Source: an uncultured bacterium (GTDB lineage: Bacteria > Krumholzibacteriota > Krumholzibacteriia > JACNKJ01). Taken from it: a stretch of DNA of 64,000 nucleotides. A model generated the notes under the pieces. It was not told the origin of the DNA. It saw only the letters and a program-made list of their open reading frames with translations, and searched no databases. The stretch lies in NCBI GenBank assembly GCA_964399495.1, contig CAYNQX010000017.1, positions 11,591-75,590 of the forward strand, in the 5' to 3' direction. How positions within the stretch are numbered: position 1 is the stretch's first letter; each line of letters starts with the position of its first letter. Below are positions 12,845 to 52,847 of the stretch, one piece after another. A program made the position numbers and the translations under genes.

Positions 12845-13025
12845 TTTCAGCGAAAGAGTGACAGAGAGTGAGTCGGGGCAGGTCTCCTGACTTACGGGGG
12901 GGCTTTCGCCCGATGACCGCCGCCTTCCCGGAACGTGTCCAGTGGCTCCCTTGGCGGTCTCCCGATCACAGTGGCGCGACCGTGGCGGATTCTCACCGCG
13001 CTTCCCTATTCTACCCTCGGGACGA
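12845..13025 (-). promoter_or_regulatory. Cobalamin (AdoCbl) riboswitch in the 5' leader of the TonB-dependent receptor gene
   Basis: The minus-strand transcript carries AGGGAAgcgcGGTGAGAATCC, GCCACTG twice, and a B12-box AAGTCAGGAGACCTGCC (plus-strand 12877-12895) about 70 nt upstream of the ATG at 12804. Confidence 0.75.
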
Positions 13026-13105
13026 AACCCTCGGGTCACCTCCGACCGATGAGGCGCAAAGCATACAGCCATTGCGCCCGGCCCGCAAGGCGCATTCCTT
13101 GAGGC

Positions 13106-27047: not shown

Positions 27048-27707
27048 TCAGATGAGGCGGTGACGCGAGGCCTTCTTCACGGCCCGCATCTTGTTGTTCA
27101 CCTGCAGCTTCCGGTAGATGTTCTCGATGTGCTTGCGCACGGTGGAGGGCGAGATGAAGAGGTTCGCCGCGATCTCCTTGTACTCGAGGCCCTGGCTGAG
27201 CTGCTCGAGCACCTCGATCTCCCGCGGGCTGAGGCCGAACTCCTCGCCCTCGGCCTCCTTCTGCGCCTCGGCGCGCGTGGGATCCCGGAGCAGATCCAGG
27301 GACTTCGCGGCGATGGTGGGAGACATCGGCGCGCCGCCCTCCATGAGCAGGCGCAGGCCGTCGCGGATCGCCTCGGGCGGCTCGTCCTTGAGCAGGTAGC
27401 CCATGGCCCCCGCCTGGATGGCCTGCAGGATCCGCTGGTCGTCGTCGAAGACCGTGAGCATCATCACCTTCACGTGGGGGAAGCGCTCGGTCACGGCGGC
27501 GGTGGCGGCGATGCCGTCGACGTCGGGCATCTCGATGTCCATCAGGATCGCGTCCACGCCCGCGTGCTCCTCCAGGCGCTCGAGCAGCTCCCGGCCGTTG
27601 CCGGCATGGAAGCGGAACTCGATCTCGTCCGCGAAGAGCGCGAGCTTCTCCTTGATGGCGCGGGCGAGAAACGACTTGTCCTCGGCGAGGGCGACGCGCA
27701 ACTTCAT
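27048..27707 (-). CDS. NarL/LuxR-family response regulator
   Basis: Receiver domain (LAEDK...DAILMDIEMPDVDG...MLTVFDD) followed by LuxR helix-turn-helix (LSPREIEVLEQLSQGLEYKEIAANLFISPSTVRKHIENIYRKL). Start at MKLRV with a GAAGGAG RBS. Confidence 0.85.
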   Translation of the reverse strand: MKLRVALAEDKSFLARAIKEKLALFADEIEFRFHAGNGRELLERLEEHAGVDAILMDIEMPDVDGIAATAAVTERFPHVKVMMLTVFDDDQRILQAIQAGAMGYLLKDEPPEAIRDGLRLLMEGGAPMSPTIAAKSLDLLRDPTRAEAQKEAEGEEFGLSPREIEVLEQLSQGLEYKEIAANLFISPSTVRKHIENIYRKLQVNNKMRAVKKASRHRLI

Positions 27708-27774
27708 CCTGGGCTCCTTCATGCTTCCCCCAAGTGTAGGCGAAGACGCGAGACCGGGCCATCCGGCAGATGGC

Positions 27775-29541
27775 CTATTCCAGCGGGATTCGGCACTGCA
27801 CGGCCGTTCCCCGCGCGAGACGTTTCACCGAGAAGGCGCCGCCCAGCTCCTCGCAGCGGTGCCGCATGTTCGCGACTCCGCTGCCATCCCCGCCCTCGAT
27901 CTCGCCCAGGCCCCGGCCGTCGTCCTCGACGCGAAGGCGCAGCGCGTCGGCTCCGGCTTCCAGGCGCAGGGTGATCCGCTCCGCGCCCGCGTGCTTGAGG
28001 GCGTTCTGCACCGCCTCCTGGGCGATGCGGTAGATGTTCAGCATGCGCACGGAGCCGAGAACCGGCTCCGCGTCCCCTTGCCGCGTCACGTCCAGCTCCA
28101 CCGCGACGCCGGCACCGGCGCACTGGCGCTTGAGCTGACTCAACCTCAGCTCCAGTGCGTCGAACCCCGCCTCCTCGCTCTTGAGCGCCCAGACCGTCTG
28201 GCGCAGCTCGCCGAGGGTATCGCGGCCGAAGTCCCCGAGAGCCGAGAGCTTCGTCCCGGATTCGCCCGCCCACGTCCCGTGTGCGAGGTTGTCGAGGGAG
28301 CTGATCAGGAAGGTGAGCTGCGCGCCGATGTTGTCGTGCAGCTCGCGGGAGATCCTGAGCTTCTCGCCGGAGAGTCGCTGCTCCACCTCGACCCGCCGCA
28401 GCCGATCGCGAAGCTCCAGCTCCCGCCTGAGCTGCCGCCGCTTCAGGTGCTGGTAGCGGACGATGCCGAAGCCCACGACCAGCAGGACGAGCAACACGCC
28501 CACGAGCAGCAGCACCAGGCGTGTGCGGGCCTCGATCTCCAGACGGTTCTCGGCCAGCTCGCGATCCTTCTTCTCCGTCTCGTACTCGATCTCCAGAGCG
28601 GCGATGCGGGAGTTGGTTTCCACGTTGACGAGGCTGTCCCGGAACGTGCTCATCAGTCCCCGCATGGCGAAGGCGCGCCGGAAGTCGCCCCTCTCCTCGT
28701 AGATCGCGACGAGCTGCTCGTAGCAGTAGCTCTTCAGGTAGTTCTGCTCGGCCGCGCCGGGCAGCTCCAGGCTCCGCCGGTAGCGGCGCTCCGCGGCCTC
28801 CAGATCACCCCTGCCCAGGTGGAAGTCCCCCCACTGCACGCTGTTCACGAGCAACCCGTAGGCGTCGCCGAGGTTTTCGCGGTAGGCGTCGGACCGGATC
28901 AGCAGCGACTCGGCCGCCGCGTACTCCTGCGCGGCGAGATGGAGGCCGGCCAGGTTGTTGAGGCTGTAGGGAATCCCGATCGAGTCGTTCCGCGCCCTCT
29001 TCATGTCGAGGGCCTTCCGGTAGTAGAAAGCGGCGCTGTCGGGAGCGGAGTTCATCTCCATGAGCACGCCGTACTTGTCGTAGAGGCCGCCCGGATCCGC
29101 GACGTCGACGCCGCTCTCGACGAGCCCGATCCCCTGCCGCATGTACTCGAGAGCCCTGGGCAGATCTCGCCGCTTGAGCTGATAGCCGAGGTCCCCGTAG
29201 GCGATCGCCAGCTCCTCGCGCATTCCGATCCGCTCATAGATGCGAATGGCCTCGTACTGCGCCTCGGCGCTCTCGTCGTATCGGCCCCGGAGATAGAGCG
29301 CGATCCCCAGGTTCTGCAGCGCCCGCGCCTCGCCCCGCGCATACCCGAGCCCCCGCGCCTCGCCGGCCAGGTCGCGGTAGACCAGGGCCGAGCGCGTCAC
29401 GTTCGAGAAGATGAACTCGTGGCCGATCGCGTTCACGGAATCCACCCGCGCGATATCCGCGACGGCGGGGCCCGCCAGCAGCATCAGCAGCAGGGGCAGA
29501 TGCCGGGCAGCGCCCGCGTTCATGCCGCGGATCCACTTCAT
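27775..29541 (-). CDS. Periplasmic TPR-repeat sensor histidine kinase (HisKA_3/NarX-type), partner of the adjacent LuxR regulator
   Basis: Signal peptide, multiple TPR repeats, a TM segment, then H-box RISRELHDNIGAQLT and an HATPase_c domain. The start ATG at 29541 overlaps the upstream gene stop. Confidence 0.8.
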   Translation of the reverse strand: MKWIRGMNAGAARHLPLLLMLLAGPAVADIARVDSVNAIGHEFIFSNVTRSALVYRDLAGEARGLGYARGEARALQNLGIALYLRGRYDESAEAQYEAIRIYERIGMREELAIAYGDLGYQLKRRDLPRALEYMRQGIGLVESGVDVADPGGLYDKYGVLMEMNSAPDSAAFYYRKALDMKRARNDSIGIPYSLNNLAGLHLAAQEYAAAESLLIRSDAYRENLGDAYGLLVNSVQWGDFHLGRGDLEAAERRYRRSLELPGAAEQNYLKSYCYEQLVAIYEERGDFRRAFAMRGLMSTFRDSLVNVETNSRIAALEIEYETEKKDRELAENRLEIEARTRLVLLLVGVLLVLLVVGFGIVRYQHLKRRQLRRELELRDRLRRVEVEQRLSGEKLRISRELHDNIGAQLTFLISSLDNLAHGTWAGESGTKLSALGDFGRDTLGELRQTVWALKSEEAGFDALELRLSQLKRQCAGAGVAVELDVTRQGDAEPVLGSVRMLNIYRIAQEAVQNALKHAGAERITLRLEAGADALRLRVEDDGRGLGEIEGGDGSGVANMRHRCEELGGAFSVKRLARGTAVQCRIPLE

Positions 29542-30317
29542 CGGCGGAAACGATCGTCCAGGGGAAGCGGCGATTCGCCGGTGCGATGCGCGAGCCACCA
29601 GACGCGGGCGGCCTTCTCCAGCATCTCCAGGCGGTCCAGGGCCTCGCCGAGGGTCGCGCCGGCGGTCATGGCGCCGTGGTGCTGCCATATCACCGCGTCC
29701 GCCTCGCGCATGGCGGCCCCGCTGGCCCAGGCCAGCTCCTCGCCGCCGGGATCGGCGAAGGGCAAGCGCCTCACCCCTCCGGGCAGGAAGGCGCGGATCT
29801 CCGGCATGTGGTCCATGAGCACCGACTCGAGCGCGCCCTCCGCGCGCAGGCCGGGCAGCAGGCTGAGGGCCACCAGGAAGTCCGTGTGGGCATGAACGAG
29901 CGCGCCGGGTCCGCCGCGGGTCATGTGCACCGCGAGATGGCAGGGCAGCTCGCTGCTGGGTGGCCCGCCGCCCGTGGAGTGGCCGTCGCGCAGCAGGAAC
30001 AGACCGTCACGTCCGCGGCCGATCAGGCGCATGCCGGCGGCCGGATTCTCGGCGAGATCGCGCATGCGCACGCCGCGCGCGGTGATGAGCAGGTAGCGCC
30101 CCTCGTCGAGCTGGCCGGGAAAGGCGACCGACAGCCCCAGCTCCAGCGCCTCGCCGCCGAACACGGGGCGCTGCAGAGAGGAGGCGTCGAGCATCAGCGA
30201 CAGGTTGCCCGCCCCCGCTTCCGCCCAGCCCAGGGCGTCGATGCGCGCGGCGGTGGCGGCCAGCTCGTCGAGCACTTTGCCGTGAACGGGAAGCTGCAAG
30301 GAATCTCCTAGGGCCAA
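29538..30317 (-). CDS. Class II aldolase/adducin-family protein
   Basis: 259 aa. Zn-ligand histidines in HLAVHMTRGGPGALVHAHTDF, plus N-terminal GNLSL. Confidence 0.7.
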   Translation of the reverse strand: MALGDSLQLPVHGKVLDELAATAARIDALGWAEAGAGNLSLMLDASSLQRPVFGGEALELGLSVAFPGQLDEGRYLLITARGVRMRDLAENPAAGMRLIGRGRDGLFLLRDGHSTGGGPPSSELPCHLAVHMTRGGPGALVHAHTDFLVALSLLPGLRAEGALESVLMDHMPEIRAFLPGGVRRLPFADPGGEELAWASGAAMREADAVIWQHHGAMTAGATLGEALDRLEMLEKAARVWWLAHRTGESPLPLDDRFRR

Positions 30318-31312
30318 CGTCTCACGATGCGAAAGCCGGTGCGGTCATCCGCCACCTCGGGGATCTCGCGATCTCGGTTCCAGGCGCGCAGGTGGCCATA
30401 GGGCCCCCACCAGCTCCCGCCGCGCGCGCTGCGCTCGTGTTCGATCTCCACGCCGATGTCCCAGGGGTCGACCAGCGGCTCGAAGTTCTCCCATTCACCG
30501 TACCAGTCCTGGCACCACTCGCGCAGGTTGCCGGCCAGGTGCGCGAATCCATAGTAGGAGTCGCCGACCGGCGAGTGGGAGCCGGCGGGGAGCGGCCCGG
30601 CCTCGCAGGGACTGCCGCCCTCTTCGTCGAGGCCGTTGGCGAGCGAGCAGTCCGGGCTCAGATCGCCCCAGGGGTAGACCCGCTGGTCCGGAGCCCGGGC
30701 GGCGCACTCCCACTCGGCCTCGGTGGGCAGGCGCCAGCCGACGGCATCGTAGGGATTGCCCAGGGGACCGCACTCCCAGTCATGCGCGCTGCGAAAGTAG
30801 CTCTCGGGCAGGTCCTCCGCGCGATTGCGCCAGTCGCAGTAGAGCGCCGCGCCGAACCAGCTCACGTGCCGCAGGGGATCGAACGACGAGGCGCCGGGCG
30901 CGAGCGCGAAGGAGTCGGCGGGCAGATCGTGGCGCAGTTCGTCGCAGGCATCCAGATGCAGCAGGTTGGCTCCGCTGAGATCGTCCCAGATCCAGCCGTC
31001 CTCCACGGACAGCTCCCCGGCGCGCCAGGCCTCGTTCAACAGGGGCAGGTACTCGCCCAGGCCGAGTTCGCCGTGGGCCATGATCAGCGGGCGCGTCAGC
31101 TCCACGCGCCGGCCGCCCGGAGGATCCCAGATGTCGGGCTCGCCCATGTGGAAAGTCGCGGAGTAGACGAGATGGAAGCCGCTCGGGGCCTGAGGCAGGG
31201 CGCCGTCGCCGTCGCCGAAGCAGCTCAGGGAGCTTGCGGCGAGGGCGAAAAGGAGAGCCAACTGTCTGATAGCGCGGAACATCCACCACCTCGGGTCTTT
31301 CACCAGTCCCAT
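30308..31312 (-). CDS. Formylglycine-generating enzyme (FGE/SUMF1) family protein, secreted lipoprotein
   Basis: Motifs GNLREWCQDWY, RGGSW and WRLPTEAEWECAA. Lipobox LSC. The start may instead be MFRAIRQ at 31282. Confidence 0.7.
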   Translation of the reverse strand: MGLVKDPRWWMFRAIRQLALLFALAASSLSCFGDGDGALPQAPSGFHLVYSATFHMGEPDIWDPPGGRRVELTRPLIMAHGELGLGEYLPLLNEAWRAGELSVEDGWIWDDLSGANLLHLDACDELRHDLPADSFALAPGASSFDPLRHVSWFGAALYCDWRNRAEDLPESYFRSAHDWECGPLGNPYDAVGWRLPTEAEWECAARAPDQRVYPWGDLSPDCSLANGLDEEGGSPCEAGPLPAGSHSPVGDSYYGFAHLAGNLREWCQDWYGEWENFEPLVDPWDIGVEIEHERSARGGSWWGPYGHLRAWNRDREIPEVADDRTGFRIVRRWP

Positions 31313-31355
31313 TCGATTGGTATGTTAGCAGCCACTCCGTCCCAGGGAAAGATCC

Positions 31356-34005
<2,650 letters not shown>

Positions 34006-34022
<17 letters not shown>

Positions 34023-34338
34023 TCTCAAGCTTCTGATATCGACCCTGCCCGAACGCGATGTCGCCGAGCGGATCGCCGAGATCATGGTGGAGGAGCGCCT
34101 GGCCGCCTGCGTGCAGGTGCTGCCCGGGCTCACGAGCATCTACCGCTGGGAGGGAAAGATCGAGCGGGGCGAGGAACTGCTGCTGCTCGTCAAGACGACA
34201 CGGCCGGGAGCCTGCATGGCGCGGCTGGAAACACTTCATCCCTACGACGTACCCGAGATCCTGGTGGTCGACGTCGATGGCGGGTTGACCGCCTACCTCG
34301 ACTGGGCCTCCTCGGAGTGCGACCCGGAAAAGCACTGA
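34006..34338 (+). CDS. cutA: Divalent-cation tolerance protein CutA
   Basis: Core CutA1 fold: LLISTLPERDVAERIAEIMVEERLAACVQVLPGLTSIYRWEGKIERGEELLLLVKT. Probable GTG start at 34006, 17 nt inside the upstream gene; the track ORF begins at 33967. Confidence 0.65.
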
Positions 34339-34404
34339 TTCCCGACTGGCCCCGCCCCCTCGAATTCCCTACCATGTCCCCTGCCCGAGCTTGGAGGTGA
34401 GGAC

Positions 34405-37391: not shown

Positions 37392-39116
37392 ATGCTCAAG
37401 AGCACCCCCACACTGGGCAACCTCTTGATTCAGGCGGATTTGGTCACCGAGGAGCAGGTTCAGACGGCCCTTGCCGAGCAGGCGAGGACCCATGAGCGCA
37501 TCGGTGAGATACTGAGCCGCCTGACATCTCTGAGCACGGATCAGATCCAGGATGCCCTGGGTCGACAGCTTGGCCTCAAACGGTTCAATCCGGCAAAAAA
37601 ACAGTCAGATCCTGCCGCCCTGGAACTCATCCCGGTAGAATTTTCCCGTCGCCACAACCTTCTGCCCATCCACCTGGGTCCGGAAACCCTCATCGTGGCG
37701 ATGGCGGACCCGCTCGATGTGGAGGCCCGAGACCAGCTCGAGCAGATCGCGAAGCAGCATCAGGTGATGCTGGAGATCTAGATCGCCACCGCCAAGGAGC
37801 TGGCCGAGGCCTGCGAAACGCGCTACGCGCAGGTCAGCGGCAGCCGCCAGGTGAACCAGCTCATCGAGCTCGTCGTGGACGAACTCGGCGACGAGGGCGA
37901 CGAGGAGGAAGCCGGCGACGAGGACGAGGCGCAGAAGCGCGCCGAGGACGCGGGCATCGTCAACCTGGTGAACCGGATCTTCGCGCAGGCCATTCAGGAG
38001 CGGGCGACGGACATCCATATCGAGCCCCTCGAACACGGGCTCGTGATCCGCTTCCGCGTGGACGGCATTCTCCAGGACGCCCTGAGCCCGCCCCTGGCGG
38101 TGTACACGGGCGTGGTTAGCCGCATCAAGATCCTGGCGCACATGGACATCGCCGAGCGGCGGATGACGCAGGACGGGCGCCTCACCCACCGCGGCGCTGG
38201 CCGCGAAATCGATATCCGCGTTTCGGCGATACCCACCATTCATGGCGAAAAGCTGGTCCTGCGACTCCTGGACAAGTCCAACTTCGACTACAAGCTGGTG
38301 GATCTCGGCTTCTCCGAGGACGACTACCGCACCATCACGGAGGCGATCCACCACCCCCACGGCATGATTCTCCTGTCGGGCCCCACCGGCTCCGGCAAGA
38401 CCACCACGCTCTACGCGAGCCTCCTCGAGCTGCACGACAACTCGCTGAACATCACGACCGTCGAGGACCCCGTGGAGTACCAGATCGACCGGATCAACCA
38501 GGTCCAGCTGAACCCGCGGAAAAAGGTCACCTTCGCCTCGGCATTGCGCGCCTTCCTGCGTCAGGACCCGGACGTAATCATGCTCGGCGAGATCCGCGAT
38601 CAGGAGACGGCCGAGATCTCGATACGCGCCGCCCTGACCGGTCACCTGGTCTTCAGCACGATTCACGCGAACGACGCGCCCTCGACGGCCGTCCGGCTCA
38701 TCGCCATGGGCGTCGAGCCCTTCATGTCGGCGAGCGCGCTCACGCTGGTGGCGGCCCAGCGCCTGATCCGGCGCAACTGCCCGCACTGCCTCGAGGAGTA
38801 CCGGCCCACGGACGAGGTGCTCGCGGCCATCGAAGATCCCAGTTTCGGCGACGAGAGCGCGCCCGTGTTTCGACGCGGAGCGGGCTGCGCGGCCTGCAAG
38901 GACCGCGGCTACCTGGGCCGGGTCGCCATCGTGGAACTGATGTCGCTCACCGCGCCGTTGCGCCAGGCGATCGCCAGCGGAGAGCCGGCATCGTCGATCC
39001 GGCGACTCGCGATGGCCGACGGCATGGTTCCCCTGCGCCAGGCCGGTCTGCGGAAGGTGCGCGAGGGCGTCAGCACGGTCGAAGAAGTATTGAGGGTATG
39101 CCTGAGCGACGACTGA
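37392..39116 (+). pseudogene. pilB: Type IV pilus assembly ATPase PilB (GspE family) interrupted by a single in-frame TAG at 37779-37781
   Basis: An N-terminal T2SSE_N domain fragment (37392-37781, 129 aa) and the ATPase fragment (GTG at 37851-39116) lie in the same frame. The ATPase fragment has Walker A GPTGSGKTT and the Zn tetracysteine CPHC...CAAC. Read through the TAG, they give a normal 574-aa PilB. Confidence 0.8.
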
Positions 39117-39134: not shown

Positions 39135-40385
39135 GTGGAGAGAATGACGACCGTCTCCTACATCGCCAAGGATGAACGCGGCGAGGAAATCATCGGACAG
39201 AAGTCCGGGAGCAGCATGGACGAGATCATCGCCGAGCTCCACGGTCAGGGACTCGCGATCCTGCACGTCAGCGAGGATCGCGGCGGCGTCCACGGCGGGT
39301 GGCGCGAGCGCCTCAAGGCGGGAATGCTCGGCACGGCCAAGACGCGCGACCTCGCGCTCTTCAGCCGGCAGTTCGCCACGATCCTGGAGGCGGGCATTCC
39401 CCTCAACCGGGGACTGCGCGGCCTGGCCACCGATTCCACGAACCGTATTCTCGGTCGCGCCGTGGGCGACATCGCGGATCGCATCGAGAAGGGCGAATCG
39501 CTTTCGGACGCCATGGAGGCCCACCCCGAGGCCTTCAACAAGATGTACCTGAGCATGATTCGCGCGGGCGAGCAGGCGGGCACGCTGGATCAGATGATCG
39601 AGCAGGTCGCCGTCTACCTGGAGAAAGTGGACACGATCAAGACCAAGGTGCGGGGCGCCATGTCCTACCCGGTCTTCACCCTGGGCTTCGCGATCCTCGC
39701 CGTGCTGTTCCTGCTGCTCAAGATCGTCCCGACCTTCGCGGAGATCTACGCGGACATGAATCAGCAGTTGCCCGCGCTCACGCGGAGCATCATCGCCGTC
39801 TCCAACGCCATCACCAGCAACTTCCTCATGGCCGTGATGGTGACCGTGACGGTGACCGCCGGCTTCATCTTCTGGGGTCAGACCCAGTCCGGCAGGTACC
39901 TGCGGGACAGGATGGTCCTGCGATTGCCGGTGTTCGGGCCGATCGTGCGCAAGGCGGTCATGAGCCGTTTCGCCCGCACCTTCGGCGTGCTGCTGAAGAG
40001 CGGCCTGCCGATTCTCGAGAGCCTCACCCTGGTGGGCGCGGCCTCGGGCAATCTCGTGGTGTCCAGGGCTCTGGACAAGGTGAAGGAGCAGATCGGCAGC
40101 GGCAAGGAGATCACGCAGTCGTTCCGCAACACCGGGAAGTTCCCCGAGATGGTGCTGCAGCTCATGGCCACCGGCGAGGAATCCGGCGAGATGGACGGCA
40201 TGCTGATCAAGGCCTCGGACTTCTACGACCGCCAGGTCGAGGCGTCCGTGAACGGAATCGCATCGCTGATCGAACCCCTGATGATCGTGATCGTGGGCGC
40301 CCTGATCGGCGTCATCGTGGTGAGCGTCTTCCTGCCGGTGTTCTACCTGGGCGACGCGGTCATGAAGGGCGGATTCAATCTTTGA
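39135..40385 (+). CDS. pilC: Type IV pilus inner-membrane platform protein PilC (GspF family)
   Basis: 416 aa, two T2SSF repeats, three TM segments. Confidence 0.9.
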   Translation: MERMTTVSYIAKDERGEEIIGQKSGSSMDEIIAELHGQGLAILHVSEDRGGVHGGWRERLKAGMLGTAKTRDLALFSRQFATILEAGIPLNRGLRGLATDSTNRILGRAVGDIADRIEKGESLSDAMEAHPEAFNKMYLSMIRAGEQAGTLDQMIEQVAVYLEKVDTIKTKVRGAMSYPVFTLGFAILAVLFLLLKIVPTFAEIYADMNQQLPALTRSIIAVSNAITSNFLMAVMVTVTVTAGFIFWGQTQSGRYLRDRMVLRLPVFGPIVRKAVMSRFARTFGVLLKSGLPILESLTLVGAASGNLVVSRALDKVKEQIGSGKEITQSFRNTGKFPEMVLQLMATGEESGEMDGMLIKASDFYDRQVEASVNGIASLIEPLMIVIVGALIGVIVVSVFLPVFYLGDAVMKGGFNL

Positions 40386-40477: not shown

Positions 40478-40912
40478 ATGGCTTGGTTCCGTAGGAAGTC
40501 CGATCAGAAGGGCTTCACCATGATTGAGTTGATGGTCGTCGTAGTGATCGTCGGCGTGCTCGCCGCGATCGCCATCCCGCTGTACGGGAGCTACATCAAG
40601 AACGCCAGGATCACGGAGGCCACCGCCCGCATCGGCGAGGTCATCACGGCATCCAAGGCCTGGGCGCTCGAGAACCCGAACGCGACCGGCGACCCGATGT
40701 GGCCCGCCGCCGCGGGCGGCATCGTCGACCTGGGGGCTTCGGACAACTTCACCTACGCGATCACCGCGGGTGGAGGCGCGAACGCGACGACGTCGCCCTA
40801 CACCATCACGGCCACCGGCGCCGCCGGCGGCAAGCTGGCCGGCGTCACCGTCGCTGTGACGGTGCAGTCGATCAACCAGAACGGGAGCCCGCCGCTCGTG
40901 AGCGGTCTCTAG
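40478..40912 (+). CDS. pilA: Type IVa major pilin
   Basis: Leader MAWFRRKSDQKG | FTMIELMVVVVIVGVLAAIAIP: class III signal with G-1/F+1/E+5. Perfect AAGGAGGT RBS. The promoter region upstream is lower in GC. Confidence 0.85.
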   Translation: MAWFRRKSDQKGFTMIELMVVVVIVGVLAAIAIPLYGSYIKNARITEATARIGEVITASKAWALENPNATGDPMWPAAAGGIVDLGASDNFTYAITAGGGANATTSPYTITATGAAGGKLAGVTVAVTVQSINQNGSPPLVSGL

Positions 40913-40982
40913 AGTCTCGCGGCACGGGACGGGAGCCGGCATGACGCCGGCTCCCTCTCCGGCCACCGAGAAAGGCGATTCG

Positions 40983-41414
40983 ATGCGGCACGAAGCGAGG
41001 AAAGTGGTTCGGCGGAACCGGGCGTTCGACTCGGCGGGGTTCACCCTGCTCGAGGTCGTCGTCGCGGCCACGCTCATCCTGATCCTCTTCTTCGGCCTCG
41101 CGCAGATCTACACGCGCGGACGCGCCCAGATCGACATGGAGGAGAGCCGGCGCAAGGCGACGGCCCTCGTCCAGTCCCGCCTGGAGGGTATCCGCAGCGA
41201 CTTCACCTTCGACACCCTCACCGGTGTCGGCAACGCGGACGGCCAGACGGTCGTCGACAACCGCAGCTTCCAGATCAGCCACACGGCCACGCCCCTGCCC
41301 TCCGGGGAAGAGGCGGCGACCGTCACCGTGGTCGTTTCCTGGGTCGTTCCCGTGAACGGCGGCGTGACGCGATCGGTGAGCGGCACGACCGTGCTGGCCA
41401 GGGGGATGCCGTGA
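40983..41414 (+). CDS. Minor pilin/pseudopilin (prepilin-type N-terminal methylation domain; FimT/PilV-like)
   Basis: ...DSAG|FTLLEVVVAATLILILFFGLAQI. Confidence 0.7.
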   Translation: MRHEARKVVRRNRAFDSAGFTLLEVVVAATLILILFFGLAQIYTRGRAQIDMEESRRKATALVQSRLEGIRSDFTFDTLTGVGNADGQTVVDNRSFQISHTATPLPSGEEAATVTVVVSWVVPVNGGVTRSVSGTTVLARGMP

Positions 41415-41899
41415 ACGAACGCGCACGCGGCATTCCACCCGGCCGCGGAGGCTTCGCCCTCCTCGAGTTGATGATCGCCCTGGTCCTCGGCCTCGTCGTC
41501 GTGCTGGCCATGGGGCGGATCATCCTCGTCAATCAGTCATCCTGGAACATGGGTCGCGACAAGGCCGTGCTCCAGCAGAACGTGAGCGAATCGATGGAGT
41601 GGATGCTCCGGTCGATCCGGGAAGCGGGATCGATCGATCTCGTGAGCAACCAGGAGTTCCGCACCTACGACCGCCAGGCGAACCTGCTCCATGTCTACCG
41701 GCTGGACACGGGCGCCGCGCCCCCCATGCTGCTGCGAGACGGCACCGCGCTGATCGATCGCCGCTGCACCCAGTTCAACGTGGCCGCGAACTCGGACACC
41801 ACCTGTCTCACCATCGATCTCGAGTTCGCCGACGCAACGGACACGCGAGTGGCCGCGTCCGTTCGCGGCACCCTTCGCAATGCGACCCTGGAGTTCTAG
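41411..41899 (+). CDS. Minor pilin PilW-like
   Basis: GG|FALLELMIALVLGLVVVLAMG prepilin motif; 4-nt overlap with the neighbouring genes. Confidence 0.6.
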   Translation: MNERARGIPPGRGGFALLELMIALVLGLVVVLAMGRIILVNQSSWNMGRDKAVLQQNVSESMEWMLRSIREAGSIDLVSNQEFRTYDRQANLLHVYRLDTGAAPPMLLRDGTALIDRRCTQFNVAANSDTTCLTIDLEFADATDTRVAASVRGTLRNATLEF

Positions 41900-41900
41900 C

Positions 41901-43235
41901 ATGGGAACCCGACTTCGCTTCGCATCGCGCATCACCCGCTGGCCGCGGGAGGGCTACGCCCTGCTCACCGCCATGATCTTCGCGCTCGTCATCACCCTGG
42001 CCGGGTTGGCCTTCTTCAGCATCGCCACCTACGAGACGCGCAGCTCGATCAACGCCCATCGCTCGCAGCAGGCCTTCCATATCGCCGACGGCGCCATCGA
42101 ACGCGCCAGGGCCATGCTGCTCGATGACATCACCTGGCAGGCCGGCTGGACCGCCGAAGCCCTGGGCCAGGGAGAGTTCGATCTCACCGTCACGCCGACC
42201 ACCCACCTCGGCCAGCCCGCCCTGAACATGGTGGCCGAAGGCCGGATCGCGAACGCCGCGCGCAGCATCGAGGCGGTGGTGCGCGCCACGCCGAGCGCAT
42301 TCGGCCTGAACGTCCTGGTGGCTGGAGACGCCGACGTGAACGGAAACCTCTGCCTCACCGGCGCGGTGCACGTGGGCGGCGACGGCGATTTCGGCCCCGG
42401 CGACGTCCACCTGGCCTGCGGCGAATACACGGAGGGGTTCGAGGTGTCCCCGCCCCCGGTCCGCACGGAAGCGGGTCAGTACCCCGACGCCACCTACTAC
42501 GAGGTCCGGGGCACGAAGATCGGCAACCAGTATCAGGCCCGCATCTTCGACGGCAACGGCGTCGACATCACCTCCGCCCTGGGCGACAGCCTCGTGGGCG
42601 TGACCTCCTATCACAACGGCTCGAAGAGCTTCACCTTCGACTTCGGCAACAACGCCACCATCCGGAACTACTTCGACGAATCCACCGGCATCTTCCGGCG
42701 GGCGCCCGGCGACCTGGGCGTGGTCGTCAACTTCGGCAGCCCGCCGGTGACGGATCCGCCCGGCATCCTGGGCGTGAGCAACGTCATCCTGGACGGCAAC
42801 GCATCGACCACGGTCACCAGCACCCTCATCAACACACGCTTCACCGGCATCACGGCGGAGCAGCGCCTCGATGCTGCCTTCTGGCAGGGCGGACTGACGA
42901 CGGTGAAGCAGATCACCTTCGAGCCGAGCATGGGCATCGCGCTCATCACCAAGGAGTTCATGAAGTCCGGCGGCTCGCAGGTGGATATCGGCACCTCGGA
43001 CTATCCCGCCCTCGTCTACACCACGGGAGACGTGGTCTCCCTGAACTCGAACTTCGAGCTCTCCGGCAGCCTGATCTGCCTGGGAGACTGGAACAGCTCC
43101 GGGGGTCCGAATCTGTTCTTCGACCCGAGTTTCCAGGCCAACCTGCCCGGCTACCTCGCGTCCTCCTGGAACGCGGGCGTGTCGGGCACCATGCACATTC
43201 TCTCCTGGCGCGAGATCGCCAGCGCGGGGAACTGA
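41901..43235 (+). CDS. PilX-like pilus assembly protein (PilX_N domain)
   Basis: EGYALLTAMIFALVITLAGLAFFSIATYETRSS is typical of the PilX N-terminus. Confidence 0.6.
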   Translation: MGTRLRFASRITRWPREGYALLTAMIFALVITLAGLAFFSIATYETRSSINAHRSQQAFHIADGAIERARAMLLDDITWQAGWTAEALGQGEFDLTVTPTTHLGQPALNMVAEGRIANAARSIEAVVRATPSAFGLNVLVAGDADVNGNLCLTGAVHVGGDGDFGPGDVHLACGEYTEGFEVSPPPVRTEAGQYPDATYYEVRGTKIGNQYQARIFDGNGVDITSALGDSLVGVTSYHNGSKSFTFDFGNNATIRNYFDESTGIFRRAPGDLGVVVNFGSPPVTDPPGILGVSNVILDGNASTTVTSTLINTRFTGITAEQRLDAAFWQGGLTTVKQITFEPSMGIALITKEFMKSGGSQVDIGTSDYPALVYTTGDVVSLNSNFELSGSLICLGDWNSSGGPNLFFDPSFQANLPGYLASSWNAGVSGTMHILSWREIASAGN

Positions 43236-43247
43236 CGGGAGGAACCG

Positions 43248-44201
43248 TTGCGCGGTTCACGAAACATCAGGACGGGCATCGACATCGGGTCGCACAGCGT
43301 CAAGCTGGTGCGCGGCCTCGGCGACCGCGGCCTCGAATCCCTCACCCACCACGGCATCGAGACCTGGGAGGGCGGACGCGACGTCGATCGCGCCGCCGCC
43401 GCGCTCGCATCGCTCATGGAGCGCCTGGAGCTCGACCGACGCAAGCTCGGCCGCCTGGCCACGGCCGTCGACGGCTGGGACGGCAGCTGCCGGGAGGTAG
43501 TGACTCAGGCTCTCGAGGACGAGGAGTTCGCGCGCGCGCTTCCCTACGAGGCCAGGCGGCACCTGAATCTCGAGGGCATGGAGCACCCGGTGATCGCGGG
43601 CCAGGTTCTGGGCCCCGTGGTCGGCGGTCAGGCCGAGGAGGGCAATCGCAACCGCGTGCTGTTGGCCGCCGTGCCGAGGGCCCGCAGGGAGTACGCGCTC
43701 TCGGTGCTCGAACGGATCGGGCTCGAGCCCGAGCTGGTCGATCTCGAGCCGCTGGCGGGACTCAACGCGCTCTTCGCCTCGGGCATCGAGGACGATGGGG
43801 GCAAGGAGGCCATCGGCCTCCTCGATCTCGGCGCGGGGGCCGTCGGCTTCGCCGTGGGTTGCCGCAGCGGCGGCCTGATGAGCCGGGTCGTGGGTTCCGG
43901 TCTCGGGGGGCTGTCGGAGCCCGAGCGTCAGACCTTCATCGCGGCGCTCGTGGATCGCGTCGCGGAGACGATCACCTACTTCCGGGGCCGCTTTCACCGC
44001 AAGGTGCGGTCCGTCGTCCTGTCCGGCAACGGAGCCGGGCTGACCGAGCTCGTGGACAACCTGTCGACCGCGCTGGACTGCGGGGTGCAGGTCGCCGATC
44101 CGCTCGCGCCCTTCGGGTTCGTCCCCGACACCGAGGGCGAGGGCGCGCTCTACGTCACCGCCTGCGGTCTGTGTCAGCGGGGAGGCGCCGCGAATGTATG
44201 A
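43248..44201 (+). CDS. pilM: Type IV pilus assembly protein PilM (actin-like ATPase fold)
   Basis: GIDIGSHSVKLV ... GLLDLGAG ... VVLSGNGAGL; TTG start. Confidence 0.8.
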   Translation: MRGSRNIRTGIDIGSHSVKLVRGLGDRGLESLTHHGIETWEGGRDVDRAAAALASLMERLELDRRKLGRLATAVDGWDGSCREVVTQALEDEEFARALPYEARRHLNLEGMEHPVIAGQVLGPVVGGQAEEGNRNRVLLAAVPRARREYALSVLERIGLEPELVDLEPLAGLNALFASGIEDDGGKEAIGLLDLGAGAVGFAVGCRSGGLMSRVVGSGLGGLSEPERQTFIAALVDRVAETITYFRGRFHRKVRSVVLSGNGAGLTELVDNLSTALDCGVQVADPLAPFGFVPDTEGEGALYVTACGLCQRGGAANV

Positions 44202-44751
44202 GATCAACCTCTACCCCGAGTACGAGCGCAAGCTGAGGGAGTCCCGCCACCAGCGGATCCATGGGGCGATCTTCGGCGCGAGCTTCGGCGTCTCGGCGCT
44301 GATTCTCCTCGTTCTGTTCCTGAGCTCCCACCTGCTTCGCGAGCGCGTGGAGATTCTGCGCGAGTCTACCGCCAGGATGGCCGCGCTCGTCGAGGGCAGC
44401 GCGCAGAACGAGCCCGAACTGCCCGCGGCCAAGGAGCTCCTGAGGCTCCGCCAGCGGAGGATCGACTGGTCGCCCAAGCTTGCGGCACTGGCCGAGGTCA
44501 CGGATCCCACCATCACGCTGACCCGCGTGGACGGGCGACTGCCGGCCAAGGGAATCTCCGCCTCCCTCGAACTGATGGGCGAGCTGGGACCCAGGGCCAC
44601 GCATCTCGAACAGGTCTCCGCGTTCATGAACTCATTGGCCAGCGACCAGCGCGTCTCGCTGCAGTTGCCCGCCGTCGAACTCGGCAACCTCAAGGGTTCA
44701 GAGGACGGACGGTTCATGGTCACCTGCGCCCCCGGCGAAGGGGGTTCCTGA
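44194..44751 (+). CDS. pilN: PilN
   Basis: EINLYPEY followed by a TM segment (PilN N-terminal signature). Confidence 0.7.
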   Translation: MYEINLYPEYERKLRESRHQRIHGAIFGASFGVSALILLVLFLSSHLLRERVEILRESTARMAALVEGSAQNEPELPAAKELLRLRQRRIDWSPKLAALAEVTDPTITLTRVDGRLPAKGISASLELMGELGPRATHLEQVSAFMNSLASDQRVSLQLPAVELGNLKGSEDGRFMVTCAPGEGGS

Positions 44752-45281
44752 TGAATCCGCTCGGCAAGGACAGGCTGCTCTTCGCGGGAACGGGCCTGCT
44801 GCTGCTTCTGGGTCTCGTCGTCGATCTGGCCCTGAACCAGCCGGCGGTCAAGGAGATCCGCCGACTGGAGGCCTATCAGGGGCAACTCATGGGCCAGATG
44901 GCCCAACTCGGCGACCAGCACCATTCGAATCGTGACCTGGCGAAAGCGCTCAAGATCAGCACCCTCGCCGACCTCTCCTCGGAGGGCATGAACGAGGACC
45001 CGGTAGCCTACATCGGCCGATTGCTGGAGCGGTCCGGACTCGAGCGCCTGGAGCTGACGGCCCGGGGCGTCGCCGAAACCGATGTCCTGCGCCTTCATCG
45101 ATTCACGCTGCGAACCCTCGGCGGGTACTCGGCCGTGCAGGGATTCGTGCGCGACCTGGAACTCGGAGAACGACTGGCGACGGTGGACGCGTTCAGCATC
45201 GAAGGCACGGACCGCAGGGAGCGGCTGGAAGGCCGATTCAACCTGACCCTCTACAGCATGATCTCGAAGGGGACGCCATGA
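44751..45281 (+). CDS. pilO: PilO
   Basis: N-terminal TM segment and coiled coil, at the conserved position between pilN and pilP. Confidence 0.6.
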   Translation: MNPLGKDRLLFAGTGLLLLLGLVVDLALNQPAVKEIRRLEAYQGQLMGQMAQLGDQHHSNRDLAKALKISTLADLSSEGMNEDPVAYIGRLLERSGLERLELTARGVAETDVLRLHRFTLRTLGGYSAVQGFVRDLELGERLATVDAFSIEGTDRRERLEGRFNLTLYSMISKGTP

Positions 45282-45775
45282 AGCAGAAGACGCACGGCGA
45301 CCGCTTCTTCTGGCTGGGCTGCGGTCTGGTGGGAATCGTCCTGCTGATCCTCGTGTTCCGCTGCGAGCGCGCCGTCACATCGGTGGTCAGCACGCACTCC
45401 GCCGCGGAGCAGCAGGCGCTTGCGCCCGCCTCCAGCGGAGGAACGATCTACGCCATGGTGGCGATGAAGGACAGCCTCATCGCCAGCGCGGGATCCGTGG
45501 AGAGGGATCCCTTCCTGGTGGTCGAGGCGCCGAAACCGAAGCCGGCGCCACGCAAGGCCAGACCGGCCAAGAAACGTCGACTTCCCGCACCTCCGCGGTT
45601 AACGGCGATCCTGTTCGAGGAAGCCGATCCCATGGTGAAGATCACCGTGGGCTCCACCGTCTCGGGCTGGCTGAGAAACGGAGAAGTCTACAAGGGCTGG
45701 ACGATCGTGAAGATCGAGGAGACGACCGTCGAGGTCCACGACAAACACCGCACTGTGAACCTCAGTGCACGTTAG
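45278..45775 (+). CDS. pilP: PilP-like lipoprotein
   Basis: N-terminal membrane anchor, proline/lysine-rich linker, C-terminal beta domain; assigned mainly by position. Confidence 0.5.
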   Translation: MKQKTHGDRFFWLGCGLVGIVLLILVFRCERAVTSVVSTHSAAEQQALAPASSGGTIYAMVAMKDSLIASAGSVERDPFLVVEAPKPKPAPRKARPAKKRRLPAPPRLTAILFEEADPMVKITVGSTVSGWLRNGEVYKGWTIVKIEETTVEVHDKHRTVNLSAR

Positions 45776-45786
45776 GAGGGCAAGAA

Positions 45787-47097
45787 ATGAAATCTCTGCG
45801 CGATAGGGGACGTCATGCCGCCACCACGGCGCTGGCGATCGGTTTGACCCTGGCGGTGCTGCCGCTGTGGGTCTCGGCGTCGGACGCGACCGAACCCGGA
45901 CTGATCTCCCTGCACGCCAACAATACCCAGGTGAGCGAGATCCTGGAGATCCTGGCCGACCGCAGCGGGCTGAATATCGTGGCCGGTCCGGCGATCCAGA
46001 ATCAGATGATCTCGATCCGGCTCCAGGACACTCCCTTCGAGGAGGCGTTGAACCTGGTGGTGAGGACCATGGGCCTCGGTTACGAGCGGGTGGGCAACTC
46101 GATTCTCGTTACCGACATCCAGTCGCTCGCCGTCAAGACCGGTTTGATCGTCCGCATCTTCGACCTGCAATTCGCCTCCGCGACGAAGGTCGCCGAGATC
46201 CTCGAGATCCTCAGCCGCGACGTCTCCGCGGAAGCCAAGGGCAACCACGTCATCTTCCGCGGCCCCCAGGCGGCGATCCAGCAGGCCGAGGTCATCGTGG
46301 CGCAGCTCGACCGGAAACCCGGCCAGGTGATTCTCGAGGCGCGCCTGATCGAGGTGAACACCACGGCGCTGCTCGAAGCCGGTATCGACTGGGAGTCGAT
46401 CACCGACTGGAGCACCATCATCACCGAGGGCGACCACGGAGCCTCTCCGAAGGGCACCTTCCCCACGGAGATCGCCTACGGCCCCGTCGATGACGGAGTG
46501 CAGCTTCACCGGCAGCTCACGGCTTTCGAACTGGCCGTCGAGGCCCTGATCGCCGACGGCAACGCGCGCCTGCTCTCCAACACGAAGGTCGTGACCCTCG
46601 ACGGTGAACCGGCCGAGATCTTCGCGGGCGACACCGTGCCCGTGGTCATCTCCTCCGTGCAGTCGCCGCAGTCGGCCGGCGCGTCGTTCCAGACCGTCCA
46701 GGTCGAGAAGATCGACGTGGGCGTGCGCCTCGCGATCACGCCGCGCATCAGCGACGACGGCACGGTCACGATGCTCGTCGAGCCCGAGGTCTCCCGCATC
46801 GTCGGCTACGTCGGCCAGTACGAGGATCTGCCCCAGACCTCCACCCGTCGGGCGCGCACCCTGCTGCGCACCGGAGACGGCGAGAAGATCTACATGGGCG
46901 GGCTGATCATCGACGAGGAGCGGGAGACCATCCGAAAGGTGCCCCTGCTCGGCGACATTCCCGTTCTGGGCCACCTGTTCCGTCACGTGAAGCGCGACGT
47001 GAATCGCTTCGACCTGGTCATCGAGATCACCCCGAAGATCGTCGGCGACATGGGCAGCCTGCTGCCCGTGGCTCCCGATATCCTCGGTGGAGAATGA
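45787..47097 (+). CDS. pilQ: PilQ secretin (short form lacking AMIN domains)
   Basis: Secretin domain (VVTLDGEPAEIFAGDTVPV...GGLIIDEE...VPLLGDIPVLGHLF) with a signal peptide. Confidence 0.8.
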   Translation: MKSLRDRGRHAATTALAIGLTLAVLPLWVSASDATEPGLISLHANNTQVSEILEILADRSGLNIVAGPAIQNQMISIRLQDTPFEEALNLVVRTMGLGYERVGNSILVTDIQSLAVKTGLIVRIFDLQFASATKVAEILEILSRDVSAEAKGNHVIFRGPQAAIQQAEVIVAQLDRKPGQVILEARLIEVNTTALLEAGIDWESITDWSTIITEGDHGASPKGTFPTEIAYGPVDDGVQLHRQLTAFELAVEALIADGNARLLSNTKVVTLDGEPAEIFAGDTVPVVISSVQSPQSAGASFQTVQVEKIDVGVRLAITPRISDDGTVTMLVEPEVSRIVGYVGQYEDLPQTSTRRARTLLRTGDGEKIYMGGLIIDEERETIRKVPLLGDIPVLGHLFRHVKRDVNRFDLVIEITPKIVGDMGSLLPVAPDILGGE

Positions 47098-47146: not shown

Positions 47147-48214
47147 ATGAAGATCGACGACATTCTACGTGAAAGCGTGCGCCAGGACGCCTCGGACATC
47201 ATCATCTCCGCGGGCGCGCCGGTCACCTATCACGTGCACGGCGCGCTGGTGCAGTACGAGCCGGGGAACATCCTCTCGCCGGAGATGAGCCGGGATCTGG
47301 TGTACAGCCTGCTCGACGAGAAGCAGAGACGCCAGTTCGAGGAAGACCTCGAACTCGACATGTCCTACGAGATGGAGCACGTGGCGCGATTCCGCCTGGC
47401 GGTGTACCACCAGCGAGGCACCATCGCGGCGGTGCTGCGGGTGATTCCCATCCAGATCCCCCACTACACCGACGTCGGGCTCAGCACCAACCTGATGAGC
47501 CGGCTGGCGCATATCCCCAACGGACTCGTCCTGGTGACGGGCCCCACGGGCGCCGGCAAGTCCACGACCATCGCGAGCTGGCTCCAGTACCTGAACACCG
47601 AAGGCGAGCGGGCGAAGCACATCATCACCATCGAGGACCCGGTCGAGTACGACTTCGACTCGGAGGTCTGCGTCATCGACCAGCGGGAGCTGGGCACCGA
47701 CACGAAGAGCTACGTCGCGGGGTTGAGGAGCGCCCTCCGCCAGATGCCCCACATCATCTTCGTCGGCGAGATGCGCGACCGCGAGACGATGGAGGTGGCC
47801 CCGACGGCCGCCGAGACGGGCAACCTCGTCATCAGCACGCTCTCGACCCAGTCGTCGGCGAAGACGATCAATCGCATCATCGACGTCTTCCCCCTGAACG
47901 ACCAGGCGGAGATACGCACACGGCTCGCCCTCAGCCTCCGCTGCGTCATCTCCCAGGTGCTGCTCGGCCGACAGGACGAGCCCGGCCGCGTCGCGGCGCG
48001 GGAACTCCTGTTCGTGACGAACTCGGTGGCCAATCTCATCCGTGAGGGAAAGATCCATCAGATCAACAACGTCATTTCCAGCAGCGCGAAGGACGGAATG
48101 GTTCTCCTGGACGACTCGATGATCGAGCTCCAGCGCCTGGGCTTCGTGGCCCGGGCGGACATCCTCCCTCGCTTCCAGGACGCGGACAAGGCCCGCACCC
48201 TGCTGGAGGTTTGA
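47147..48214 (+). CDS. pilT: Twitching-motility retraction ATPase PilT
   Basis: Walker A GPTGAGKST and the PilT-specific AIRNLIRE-like motif VANLIREGKIHQI. Start at MKIDDIL with a GGAAGGA RBS. Confidence 0.9.
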   Translation: MKIDDILRESVRQDASDIIISAGAPVTYHVHGALVQYEPGNILSPEMSRDLVYSLLDEKQRRQFEEDLELDMSYEMEHVARFRLAVYHQRGTIAAVLRVIPIQIPHYTDVGLSTNLMSRLAHIPNGLVLVTGPTGAGKSTTIASWLQYLNTEGERAKHIITIEDPVEYDFDSEVCVIDQRELGTDTKSYVAGLRSALRQMPHIIFVGEMRDRETMEVAPTAAETGNLVISTLSTQSSAKTINRIIDVFPLNDQAEIRTRLALSLRCVISQVLLGRQDEPGRVAARELLFVTNSVANLIREGKIHQINNVISSSAKDGMVLLDDSMIELQRLGFVARADILPRFQDADKARTLLEV

Positions 48215-49043: not shown

Positions 49044-49190
49044 TCAGCCCGTCTTCTTCTCGGGCAGCGGCCGCACGCTGTTGCTGTGACAGCCCGGGCA
49101 GCTCCGCTCCACCGGTTTCCGGCTGTCGTAGGAACCGGCGTACTCGTGCCCGCAGCGCAGGCAGCGGAAGGTCACCGTCTTCTCAGCCAA
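49044..49190 (-). CDS. Small zinc-ribbon protein (C-x2-C ... C-x2-C), possibly translationally coupled to hdrA
   Basis: ...TFRCLRCGHEY...SCPGCHS... with a TTG or GTG start overlapping the hdrA stop; about 45 aa. Confidence 0.3.
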   Translation of the reverse strand: MAEKTVTFRCLRCGHEYAGSYDSRKPVERSCPGCHSNSVRPLPEKKTG

Positions 49191-51681: not shown

Positions 51682-52847
51682 GGGTTCTCACCTCCATCCA
51701 TGGCCTCGGCCGCAACCGTCGCAAGGTCGCGGACCTTGAGGCCTTTCAGTTCATCGTCCGCGTCGCCCTCCTGGGCGCAGCGGAAATGGAGCTGGCACTT
51801 GGGGCAGGCGGTGACGAGGGTCTCGGCCCCCCGCTCCACCGCCTCCTTGAGTCTTGTCTCCTGCAAATGTCGGCTCACCGCGTCGCAGTGCAGCCAGCCG
51901 TTGGTTCCGCAGCAGGGCGCCTCCTCGCCGTGCCGCTCGAACTCGCGAAAATCGTCACCGTAGATCCTGTTCAGCACGGCGCGCGCCGCGTCGCCGGCTC
52001 GGAGCTGGCGGCTCAGGCGGCAGGAGTCGTGGAAGCTCACCGTTTCCGCCAGAGGTCTCAGGCTCAGCTCACCGGTCTCGAGTTTGCCCGCCAGGTACTC
52101 GCTGAGGTGCATGACCTCGACGTCCAGCGAGACGCCGAGCGTGGGGTAGACGTCGCGGAGCATGTGCGCGCACTCGGGGCAGGAGGCCACGAGACGGGTC
52201 GCGCCCGTGGCGGCGATCGACTCGGCGTTGCGGCGGGCCAGCTCGGCGGCGGTGGCCTCGTCGCCGCTCCAGTAGAGGTCGTGTCCGCAGCAGCGTTCGC
52301 GGGACATCAACGCCGGCGTCTCGCCGAGGCCGGACAGCAGACGCAGGCTGCTTCTCGCGATCGCGCTGCTGTCGGACTCGAGGTGCGTGAAGTAGGCGTC
52401 GAAGAAAGGCAAGCAGCCGCTGAAGTAGACGAGATCCCCCGTCTCGGCCGCGGGCGCGCCCTTCGGCACCCAGTCGAGCCGACGCTGACCCTTGCCGTCC
52501 CGCGCCATCAGCCGGTGCAGGCTCTCGAGGGCGCCGCCGTGAGAGCAGGGAAAGGGAGTACCGGCGCCCGCAAACTCCTCGCCGCGGCTAAGGCGAGCGA
52601 AGCCGTTGTAGTCCACGTCCGAGGGGCAACGACGCGTGCAGAGCCCGCAGGTCAGACACTGTGCGAGTCGATGGGGAGCCTTCTCCGCCGCCTCGCCGCG
52701 GTCCGCCTGTCCGCTCACCCGGGTGTAGACCAGCAGGCGCGGCGAGAAGTTCTCGTCGTGAAGGGCCACGGGACAGACCGCGGTGCACTTGCCGCAATCG
52801 AGGCAGTAGTAGGCGCGGCTTTCGCGGATACTCGGCGCGAGGCTCAC
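51675..52847 (-). CDS. HdrD/HdrCB-like subunit (2x[4Fe-4S] ferredoxin plus two CCG domains)
   Basis: [25 protein letters not shown], then CCG motifs (...CCGHD..., ...CPKCQ...). Confidence 0.75.

Follow-up and report, generated by a model that had tools for sequence, protein, structure and literature searches.

An in-frame amber codon interrupts pilB in an otherwise intact type IV pilus cluster of an uncultured Krumholzibacteria-like bacterium

The gene pilB, encoding the ATPase that drives assembly of the type IV pilus, was analysed in a 64,000-nucleotide stretch of DNA from an uncultured bacterium (GenBank contig CAYNQX010000017.1), which is referred to at its full length as the window. The gene lies on the forward strand within a cluster of pilus genes. 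Its frame runs from the ATG at 37392, which has a Shine-Dalgarno-like GGAAGG upstream (-6.4 kcal/mol), to the TGA at 39114-39116, and both the list of open reading frames (ORFs) and the translation give the TAG at 37779-37781 as the sole internal stop. The parts of the gene are the following.

37392-37778, forward strand: 5' part of pilB, 129 codons; it covers roughly two thirds of the MshEN/GSPII (N1) domain and includes the cyclic di-GMP (c-di-GMP) motif region at residues 8-59.
37779-37781, forward strand: amber codon, codon 130 of pilB, seen in sequence and translation.
37775-37784, no strand: perfect 10-bp palindrome GATCTAGATC, which spans the amber codon and contains CTAG.
37782-37850, forward strand: 23 in-frame codons, IATAKELAEACETRYAQVSGSRQ, which run from the stop to the following canonical start and encode the last part of N1; they would be translated only on read-through or after reinitiation at ATC 37782.
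37851-39116, forward strand: 3' part of pilB, with the acidic linker, N2 and the C-terminal ATPase domain; a 421-residue ORF from GTG.

The amber codon stands in the context ATC TAG ATC (...QHQVMLEI*IATAKELAEACETRYAQ..., with the asterisk marking the stop). The ORF before it gives a product of 129 amino acids, and the first canonical in-frame start past it is the GTG at 37851, from which the 421-residue ORF is read. When the TAG is read through, a protein of 574 amino acids is obtained, which can be aligned with intact PilB homologues over its whole length. An earlier interpretation made from the letters and the ORF list (the sequence-only reading) had presented the gene in the same way, as two ORFs in one frame divided by a single TAG, with a canonical 574-residue PilB on read-through that bears a Walker A and a tetracysteine motif. 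All of this was borne out by the sequence, the ORF list, the translation and the family alignment described below. Since a single in-frame stop is read directly from the sequence and is no statistical pattern, the question of chance does not apply to it.

The family to which the read-through protein belongs was examined with profiles and alignments. The best-scoring family is TIGR02538, ahead of GspE (562 bits), and its match covers positions 2-562 of 564 with 576.8 bits, which is below the equivalog cutoff of 675.65. Four intact relatives (P0001, P0003, P0005 and P0060) reach 573-582 bits and are likewise below this cutoff; hence, scores below the cutoff are usual in this lineage and are no sign of decay. 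The 3' part matches Pfam T2SSE (PF00437) over profile positions 3-370 of 370 with 433.9 bits. Its translation contains the Walker A motif GPTGSGKTT, the Asp box EDPVEY, the Walker B motif DPDVIMLGEIRD and the His box TGHLVFSTIHAN, together with the tetracysteine zinc motif (CPHC and CAAC), whose columns are nearly invariant in the homologue alignment. The T2SSE core, the tetracysteine site and the gene neighbourhood are all those of a PilB, and the N1 (MshEN/GSPII) domain that is expected of extension ATPases is also present, though split by the TAG. The closest homologue (P0001, 78% identity) is a protein of 574 amino acids encoded on a contig (L007) labelled Krumholzibacteria VGXI01, and is called the sister here. 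Compared with the type IVa PilB proteins of Myxococcus xanthus, Geobacter metallireducens (5TSH) and Pseudomonas aeruginosa, which belong to TIGR02538, the read-through protein has the same length and the same domain order (N1 MshEN/GSPII, acidic linker, N2 and a C-terminal domain with a tetracysteine zinc site), and its gene likewise lies in a cluster of the order pilB-pilC-pilin...pilM-secretin-pilT. It differs from them in being broken by a TAG at codon 130 and in coming from an uncultured Krumholzibacteria-like lineage.

The position of the stop relative to the domains was established by profile and structure alignment. In the 129-residue ORF, Pfam MshEN is matched over profile positions 1-66 of 90 with 57.3 bits, while in the read-through protein the match extends over the stop to cover positions 1-85 with 63.8 bits. 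The crystallised MshEN 1-145 (5HTL) aligns to PilB residues 6-142 (MshEN 8-142), and the N-termini of solved PilB structures, 5TSH and 3JC8 being aligned as well, match residues 6-142/156. Since the MshEN match and the 5HTL alignment run across codon 130, the TAG is placed by these alignments within the N1 domain and not at a domain boundary. The 129-residue fragment is without the last 15-20 residues of N1, corresponding to its last strand and helix. The 23 codons that follow the TAG keep the family-invariant Y145 and the nearly invariant R152. It has been described that the N1 domain sets extension ATPases apart, that it is thought to engage the PilM/stator platform and that c-di-GMP binding by N1 is needed for function in several species (PMC11656802).

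A match to the NCBIfam model NF053729, a c-di-GMP motif consisting of a tandem 24-residue repeat, was found at residues 8-59 (51 bits against a cutoff of 38), entirely inside the 129-residue ORF. The domain resembles in this respect the MshE/MshEN domains of Vibrio cholerae MshE (5HTL) and of Thermus PilF (GSPII-B); unlike these, it has Asp in place of the conserved Gly at residue 16 and Thr in place of the first Arg, and the predicted c-di-GMP domain is truncated by the stop. The former change (G16D, 37437-37439) is non-conservative, specific to the lineage and situated in the first c-di-GMP motif, where the sister keeps Gly; it may weaken c-di-GMP binding by the MshEN domain. A second non-conservative and lineage-specific change, R141C (37812-37814), affects a highly conserved site among the 23 codons after the stop, at which the sister keeps Arg.

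Whether the stop is real was addressed by means of independent assemblies of the same population. The exact 129-residue product is indexed in 31 blocks of a public assembly collection; 24 contigs were read and 13 assemblies were checked, comprising seven JGI metagenomes (3300013112, 3300013111, 3300013120, 3300008954, 3300007510, 3300007770 and 3300009431), three ENA biosamples (SAMN10231914, SAMN10231911 and SAMN10231892) and three Logan runs (SRR8062351, SRR8062346 and SRR8062323). A literature search with the sample and run accessions, aimed at the environment of origin, gave no hits. Codon 130 was TAG in 13/13, and an uninterrupted full-length pilB frame was found in none of them. Identity of the assemblies to the window is 99.67-99.99% across as much as 20 kb. 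Upstream and downstream of pilB they differ from one another by scattered single-nucleotide polymorphisms (SNPs) and by small patches of SNPs, which amount to several haplotypes. Given these flanking differences, the assemblies do not all go back to one read set. The 421-residue ORF was called by the JGI, ENA and Logan gene callers alike, and the protein clusters of both half-products hold near-identical members only. No full-length pilB product of more than 78% identity was present among 5.8 billion protein clusters, from which it follows that no sense allele of the population was ever assembled. Sense-codon scans of metagenome_contigs, made with the flanks plus NNN and with the downstream flank, gave no match in a collection from which the TAG allele itself is absent and which does not hold this population.

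A sequencing, consensus or assembly artefact, a chimeric join included, would mean that the true codon is a sense codon, and this had been one of three options left by the sequence-only reading. It could draw on the lower GC content at third codon positions (GC3) in the N-terminal part of pilB (0.74 versus 0.90 in the rest) and on the location of the stop in a palindrome. The GC3 dip is, however, shared by the sister, with which the window is colinear on both sides of the stop, and no sense allele occurs in the protein database. The same TAG recurs in at least 13 assemblies that derive from different samples and pipelines (JGI, ENA re-assemblies and Logan) and carry different flanking SNPs. 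Hence, sequencing or assembly error is excluded for practical purposes, only a very slight probability being left to it, and the TAG is taken as genuine. A chimeric join, suggested by the drop in GC3, was considered and rejected, given that the intact sister dips at the same residues and many independent assemblies agree. The TAG allele is fixed in every assembly found of this near-clonal population. The first option of the sequence-only reading, a recent nonsense mutation in a strain or population variant negative for pilus assembly but positive for retraction, is thereby supported, with the correction that the allele is no minor variant, every assembly found having it.

One JGI contig (L024; 3300013120, Ga0171657_1191262) has, besides the TAG, a 1-nt deletion at about 37756 in pilB codon 122 (...AKRIR*). 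The contig is short and the deletion lies 45 nt from its end; it may represent an error due to low coverage or else a further lesion that is present in part of the population.

The homologous column was then compared across relatives. The sister locus has the same order, matE-pilB-pilC-pilin-...-pilM-...-secretin, as far as its contig reaches (through the secretin). When the sister protein is paired with the window PilB, the only gaps are two of one residue each, near residues 1 and 166, which compensate each other; there is none at the stop, opposite which the sister codon is CAT (His). Among 115 full-length PilB relatives, the column at codon 130 contains Leu in 73, Met in 16, Val in 12, Ile in 9, His in 3, and Tyr and Arg in one each. 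A comparison with orthologous pilB genes had been proposed along with the sequence-only reading, and a sense residue was thus found in 115/115, the stop being shared by none. The TAG is confined to one population (at least 99.67% identical), and a scan of GTDB species representatives returned relatives at no more than 55% identity. Three of the 120 best homologues listed are short (P0102, P0094 and P0109). The first of these, of 460 amino acids, seems to begin at the position of the stop and was considered as a second natural split, but was rejected as an artefact, its gene beginning 13 nt from a contig end. The other two still carry the MshEN domain, and a split architecture was seen in none of the 120 best homologues listed.

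TAG is a single step from TTG (Leu), TAC or TAT (Tyr) and CAG (Gln). We infer that the sense precursor was a hydrophobic or a His/Tyr/Gln-type codon; with an ancestral TTG (Leu), the site would have read GATCTTGATC. The nonsense mutation would have created both the CTAG and the palindrome GATCTAGATC around codon 130. This palindrome is unique in the window, and CTAG itself is depleted there about 12-fold (16 occurrences observed versus approximately 191 expected from base composition). A CTAG newly made in spite of such depletion fits a recent origin of the mutation. As to other tetranucleotides, GATC is about 3-fold over-represented in the window (570 occurrences).

The general use of TAG in this organism was assessed in the window. 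A TAG closes the CarD gene (422-907, with both CarD domains) at its natural length, and about ten further ORFs of coding character have the same stop; TAG is an ordinary stop in this organism and is not reassigned. The sequence-only reading had cited carD to the same effect and had held pyrrolysine to be unlikely, which agrees with the present result. The idea that the TAG encodes pyrrolysine or has been reassigned could appeal to nothing in pilB other than the in-frame TAG, and to the presence of another form of recoding in this genome, a probable selenocysteine TGA in an hdrA-like gene (see below). It is contradicted by the genes that terminate at TAG at their natural ends, and the PilB relatives have nothing more than a normal hydrophobic core site at codon 130. 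Pyrrolysine is known almost exclusively from methylamine methyltransferases, and no gene for such an enzyme was seen in the window. The probability of this explanation is regarded as very small.

A different possibility is that the stop is leaky. In this case, near-cognate decoding or a suppressor tRNA, encoded by the genome or by a phage, would yield a little full-length PilB and a low or conditional level of piliation, and the cluster would be kept under selection. Several observations are in line with it: the MshEN profile continues through the stop into the 23 codons with their family-conserved residues, pilB and the rest of the cluster do not decay, all haplotypes and samples share the allele, and the occurrence of L, M, V, I, H, Y and R at this position in relatives suggests that several inserted residues would be acceptable. 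On the other side, TAG is a frequent genuine stop, no relative has the TAG, so that the stop is not evolutionarily conserved, and the missing decay is explained equally well by a young mutation. A window-wide scan for in-frame stops flanked by coding signal on either side detected no further TAG; it returned only two chance same-frame gene neighbours and the TGA of hdrA. No tRNA gene is present in the 64-kb window and no Rfam element lies at or near the stop. The local RNA fold at the stop has a z-score of -2.4, which is unremarkable for the GC content, and a stimulatory RNA structure was rejected, only an ordinary GC-rich fold being found. Programmed readthrough, the third option of the sequence-only reading, hence received no positive support, and leaky or conditional readthrough in general is considered unlikely.

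If the ATPase part were made on its own, a start signal would be required downstream of the stop. The anti-Shine-Dalgarno duplex energy at the GTG at 37851 is -2.7 kcal/mol, which means that there is no Shine-Dalgarno sequence; the sequence-only reading had doubted independent initiation on this ground. For comparison, 14/16 of the called gene starts tested gave -6 to -12 kcal/mol, the weaker ones being matE and a tentative pilT start (47087), and internal start-like codons had a median of -3.0 kcal/mol. The GTG encodes the nearly invariant Val154, for which the sister has GTC. No sigma-70-like promoter was found within pilB, and a search for an internal promoter or terminator in the gene was equally negative. 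The only Shine-Dalgarno-like element near the stop is a GGAG located 6 nt before the ATC at 37782, whose energy of -6.4 kcal/mol equals those of the pilB and pilC starts. It derives from conserved Leu-Glu codons, and ATC is a very poor start codon. Production of the ATPase part on its own start has no support in these comparisons, and termination-reinitiation is not favoured by any feature of the sequence.

These data also bear on the proposal that pilB has become a functional split gene, in which a 129-residue c-di-GMP-binding protein and an N1-less ATPase would be made by reinitiation at ATC 37782 or GTG 37851, with sensing uncoupled from the motor. The proposal is helped by the c-di-GMP motif lying wholly in the 129-residue ORF, by the GGAG before ATC 37782 and by the prediction of two ORFs by all gene callers. 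N1-less PilB constructs consisting of N2 and the C-terminal domain form active hexamers in vitro, which also counts in its favour; the structures 5TSH and 5TSG are among the structure matches listed for PilB. The 3' ORF from GTG 37851 would, if expressed, resemble the N1-less ATPases of the PilT/PilU type in having N2 and the C-terminal domain without GSPII; unlike these, it keeps the PilB-specific zinc tetracysteine and the acidic linker. The PilT of the same cluster, which a tblastn search of the window with the PilB ATPase part identified as the only other T2SSE-type ATPase, is just 39% identical to the 3' ORF over 141 amino acids, and there is no sign that the 3' ORF is expressed. The stop, moreover, falls within the N1 fold and leaves a fragment without the last strand and helix; the available start sites are poor for the reasons given above, and no split architecture occurs among the best homologues listed. 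Coupling to the platform is believed to require N1 (PMC11656802). Taken with this evidence, a functional split is judged quite improbable.

Decay of the gene since its interruption was sought at several levels. The profile score of the read-through protein is equal to those of intact relatives, as stated above, and at 205 highly conserved columns the window PilB departs from the consensus 11 times and the intact sister 10 times. In a relative-rate comparison with the sister, the window branch and the sister branch have 7 and 14 changes in the N-terminal part, 1 and 2 in the 23 codons, and 16 and 28 in the ATPase part, and thus no segment shows excess amino-acid change on the window branch. Within the population, one non-synonymous SNP was found in pilB (D310G, in two assemblies). 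The ten other pilus genes contain no stop or frameshift in any assembly, and their SNPs number 20 synonymous and 13 non-synonymous. Judged as a pseudogene, pilB has a real premature stop relative to intact orthologues, while signs of relaxed constraint were not found. The absence of further decay is consistent with either a young lesion or residual function.

Some of the within-population SNPs are grouped in short stretches that subsets of the assemblies have in common, in the PilX-like gene (42344-42749) and in pilM (43565-43662). These look like imported recombination tracts and not like evenly spread mutations. There are no SNPs in 27392-34396, and SNPs are patchy over the whole 20 kb; a selective sweep, which the low SNP density around pilB had suggested, was abandoned for this reason.

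The explanation we favour, and hold to be probable, is that pilB carries a genuine, young nonsense mutation that is fixed in the population and abolishes or greatly reduces pilus assembly. A point mutation would have turned a sense codon at position 130 into TAG, and ribosomes would terminate there and release a 129-residue fragment with an incomplete N1. The ATPase part, having no ribosome-binding site of its own, would be made poorly or not at all. With the product cut inside N1 and the ATPase part devoid of a start signal, no working extension motor is expected. The cell would then be non-piliated or very weakly piliated while its other pilus genes are intact, and a loss of piliation is what the sequence would predict. 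The mutation appears to be young relative to the divergence from the nearest sampled relative. A selective cause, such as escape from a pilus-dependent phage or a saving in the cost of assembly, is plausible by analogy, though purely inferred.

Certain observations weigh against a young loss of function. Neither pilB nor the ten downstream pilus genes show secondary decay, and continued function, for instance through leaky readthrough, predicts the same. The allele is found on several haplotypes and is, therefore, not brand new in the population. Most SNPs in the remaining pilus genes are synonymous, which is compatible with ongoing constraint, though they may be old or imported variants. It could also be imagined that the amber codon is kept because it is useful, either with a low-level or condition-dependent suppression of TAG that limits full-length PilB and acts as a translational dimmer of piliation, or with the 129-residue c-di-GMP-binding fragment working beside a reinitiated N1-less motor. 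The cluster would then not be heading for decay; such retention is considered improbable.

Loss of function of pilB has precedents. It frequently results from selection by pilus-dependent phages and has also been found in clinical isolates of Pseudomonas aeruginosa (PMC13170266). The mutants selected by phage or isolated from clinics resemble the present case in having a single disruptive pilB mutation with the rest of the machinery intact, and they are viable and can persist (PMC13170266). They are unlike it in that, here, all assemblies of a free-living population from the environment have the allele, and these come from many samples. The event is of a known kind, a gene disrupted by a nonsense codon, in a new lineage. 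If the favoured explanation is true, it would represent a routine but clean case of a naturally fixed loss of function in the motor of a surface appendage in an uncultured lineage. For annotation, it would mean that the two ORFs are to be marked as a single disrupted pilB and not as separate genes. For the inference of traits from metagenome-assembled genomes, a complete pilus cluster would not equal a piliated cell, and for population genomics, the allele would be a candidate marker for environmental loss of pili driven by phages or by cost. Greater interest would attach to the case only on proof of readthrough at the stop or of a function for the split products.

The rest of the pilus cluster had been described as intact in the sequence-only reading, and the analysis of the genes from pilC to pilT confirms this. 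Its genes are listed below.

39144-40385, forward strand: pilC, platform protein; Pfam T2SSF, 196 bits in two stretches; intact.
40478-40912, forward strand: pilin with an N_methyl motif; intact.
40941-41414 and 41411-41899, forward strand: minor-pilin-like genes with an N_methyl motif; intact.
41901-43235, forward strand: PilX-like minor pilin or tip protein, 444 amino acids; PilX_N 19.5 bits, below the Pfam cutoff; syntenic with the sister locus; intact.
43248-44201, forward strand: pilM; PilM_2, 51 bits.
44194-44751, 44751-45281 and 45278-45775, forward strand: three small ORFs in the positions of pilN, pilO and pilP; no Pfam match, placed by position and synteny with the sister locus only.
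45787-47097, forward strand: pilQ secretin; Secretin 151 bits, with Secretin_N and STN; intact.
47147-48214, forward strand: pilT, retraction ATPase; TIGR01420 (pilT_fam) 392 bits against a cutoff of 319; start as in the JGI gene call; intact.

Two further features of the window were recorded outside the cluster. The hdrA-like gene on the reverse strand (49183-51687), for a heterodisulfide reductase subunit, is interrupted by one in-frame TGA (51082-51084; ...YPTMDCSI[TGA]ILGPKMMD...). Downstream of it, a 627-residue ORF matches positions 199-775 of 777 of the HdrA2 profile, and the in-frame segment before the TGA has 202 codons (about 195 amino acids from the first ATG), which is approximately the length of the unmatched part of the profile. 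HdrA is a known selenoprotein, and the TGA is probably a selenocysteine codon. A hairpin, GGAUGUC-GGUC-GACAUCC, is found about 21 nt 3' of the UGA, with a fold z-score of only -1.2. The other feature is a cobalamin riboswitch (RF00174) at 12860-13059 on the reverse strand, a full-length match of 94 bits, which lies upstream of a TonB-dependent-receptor-like gene with a Plug domain (10651-12804, reverse strand).

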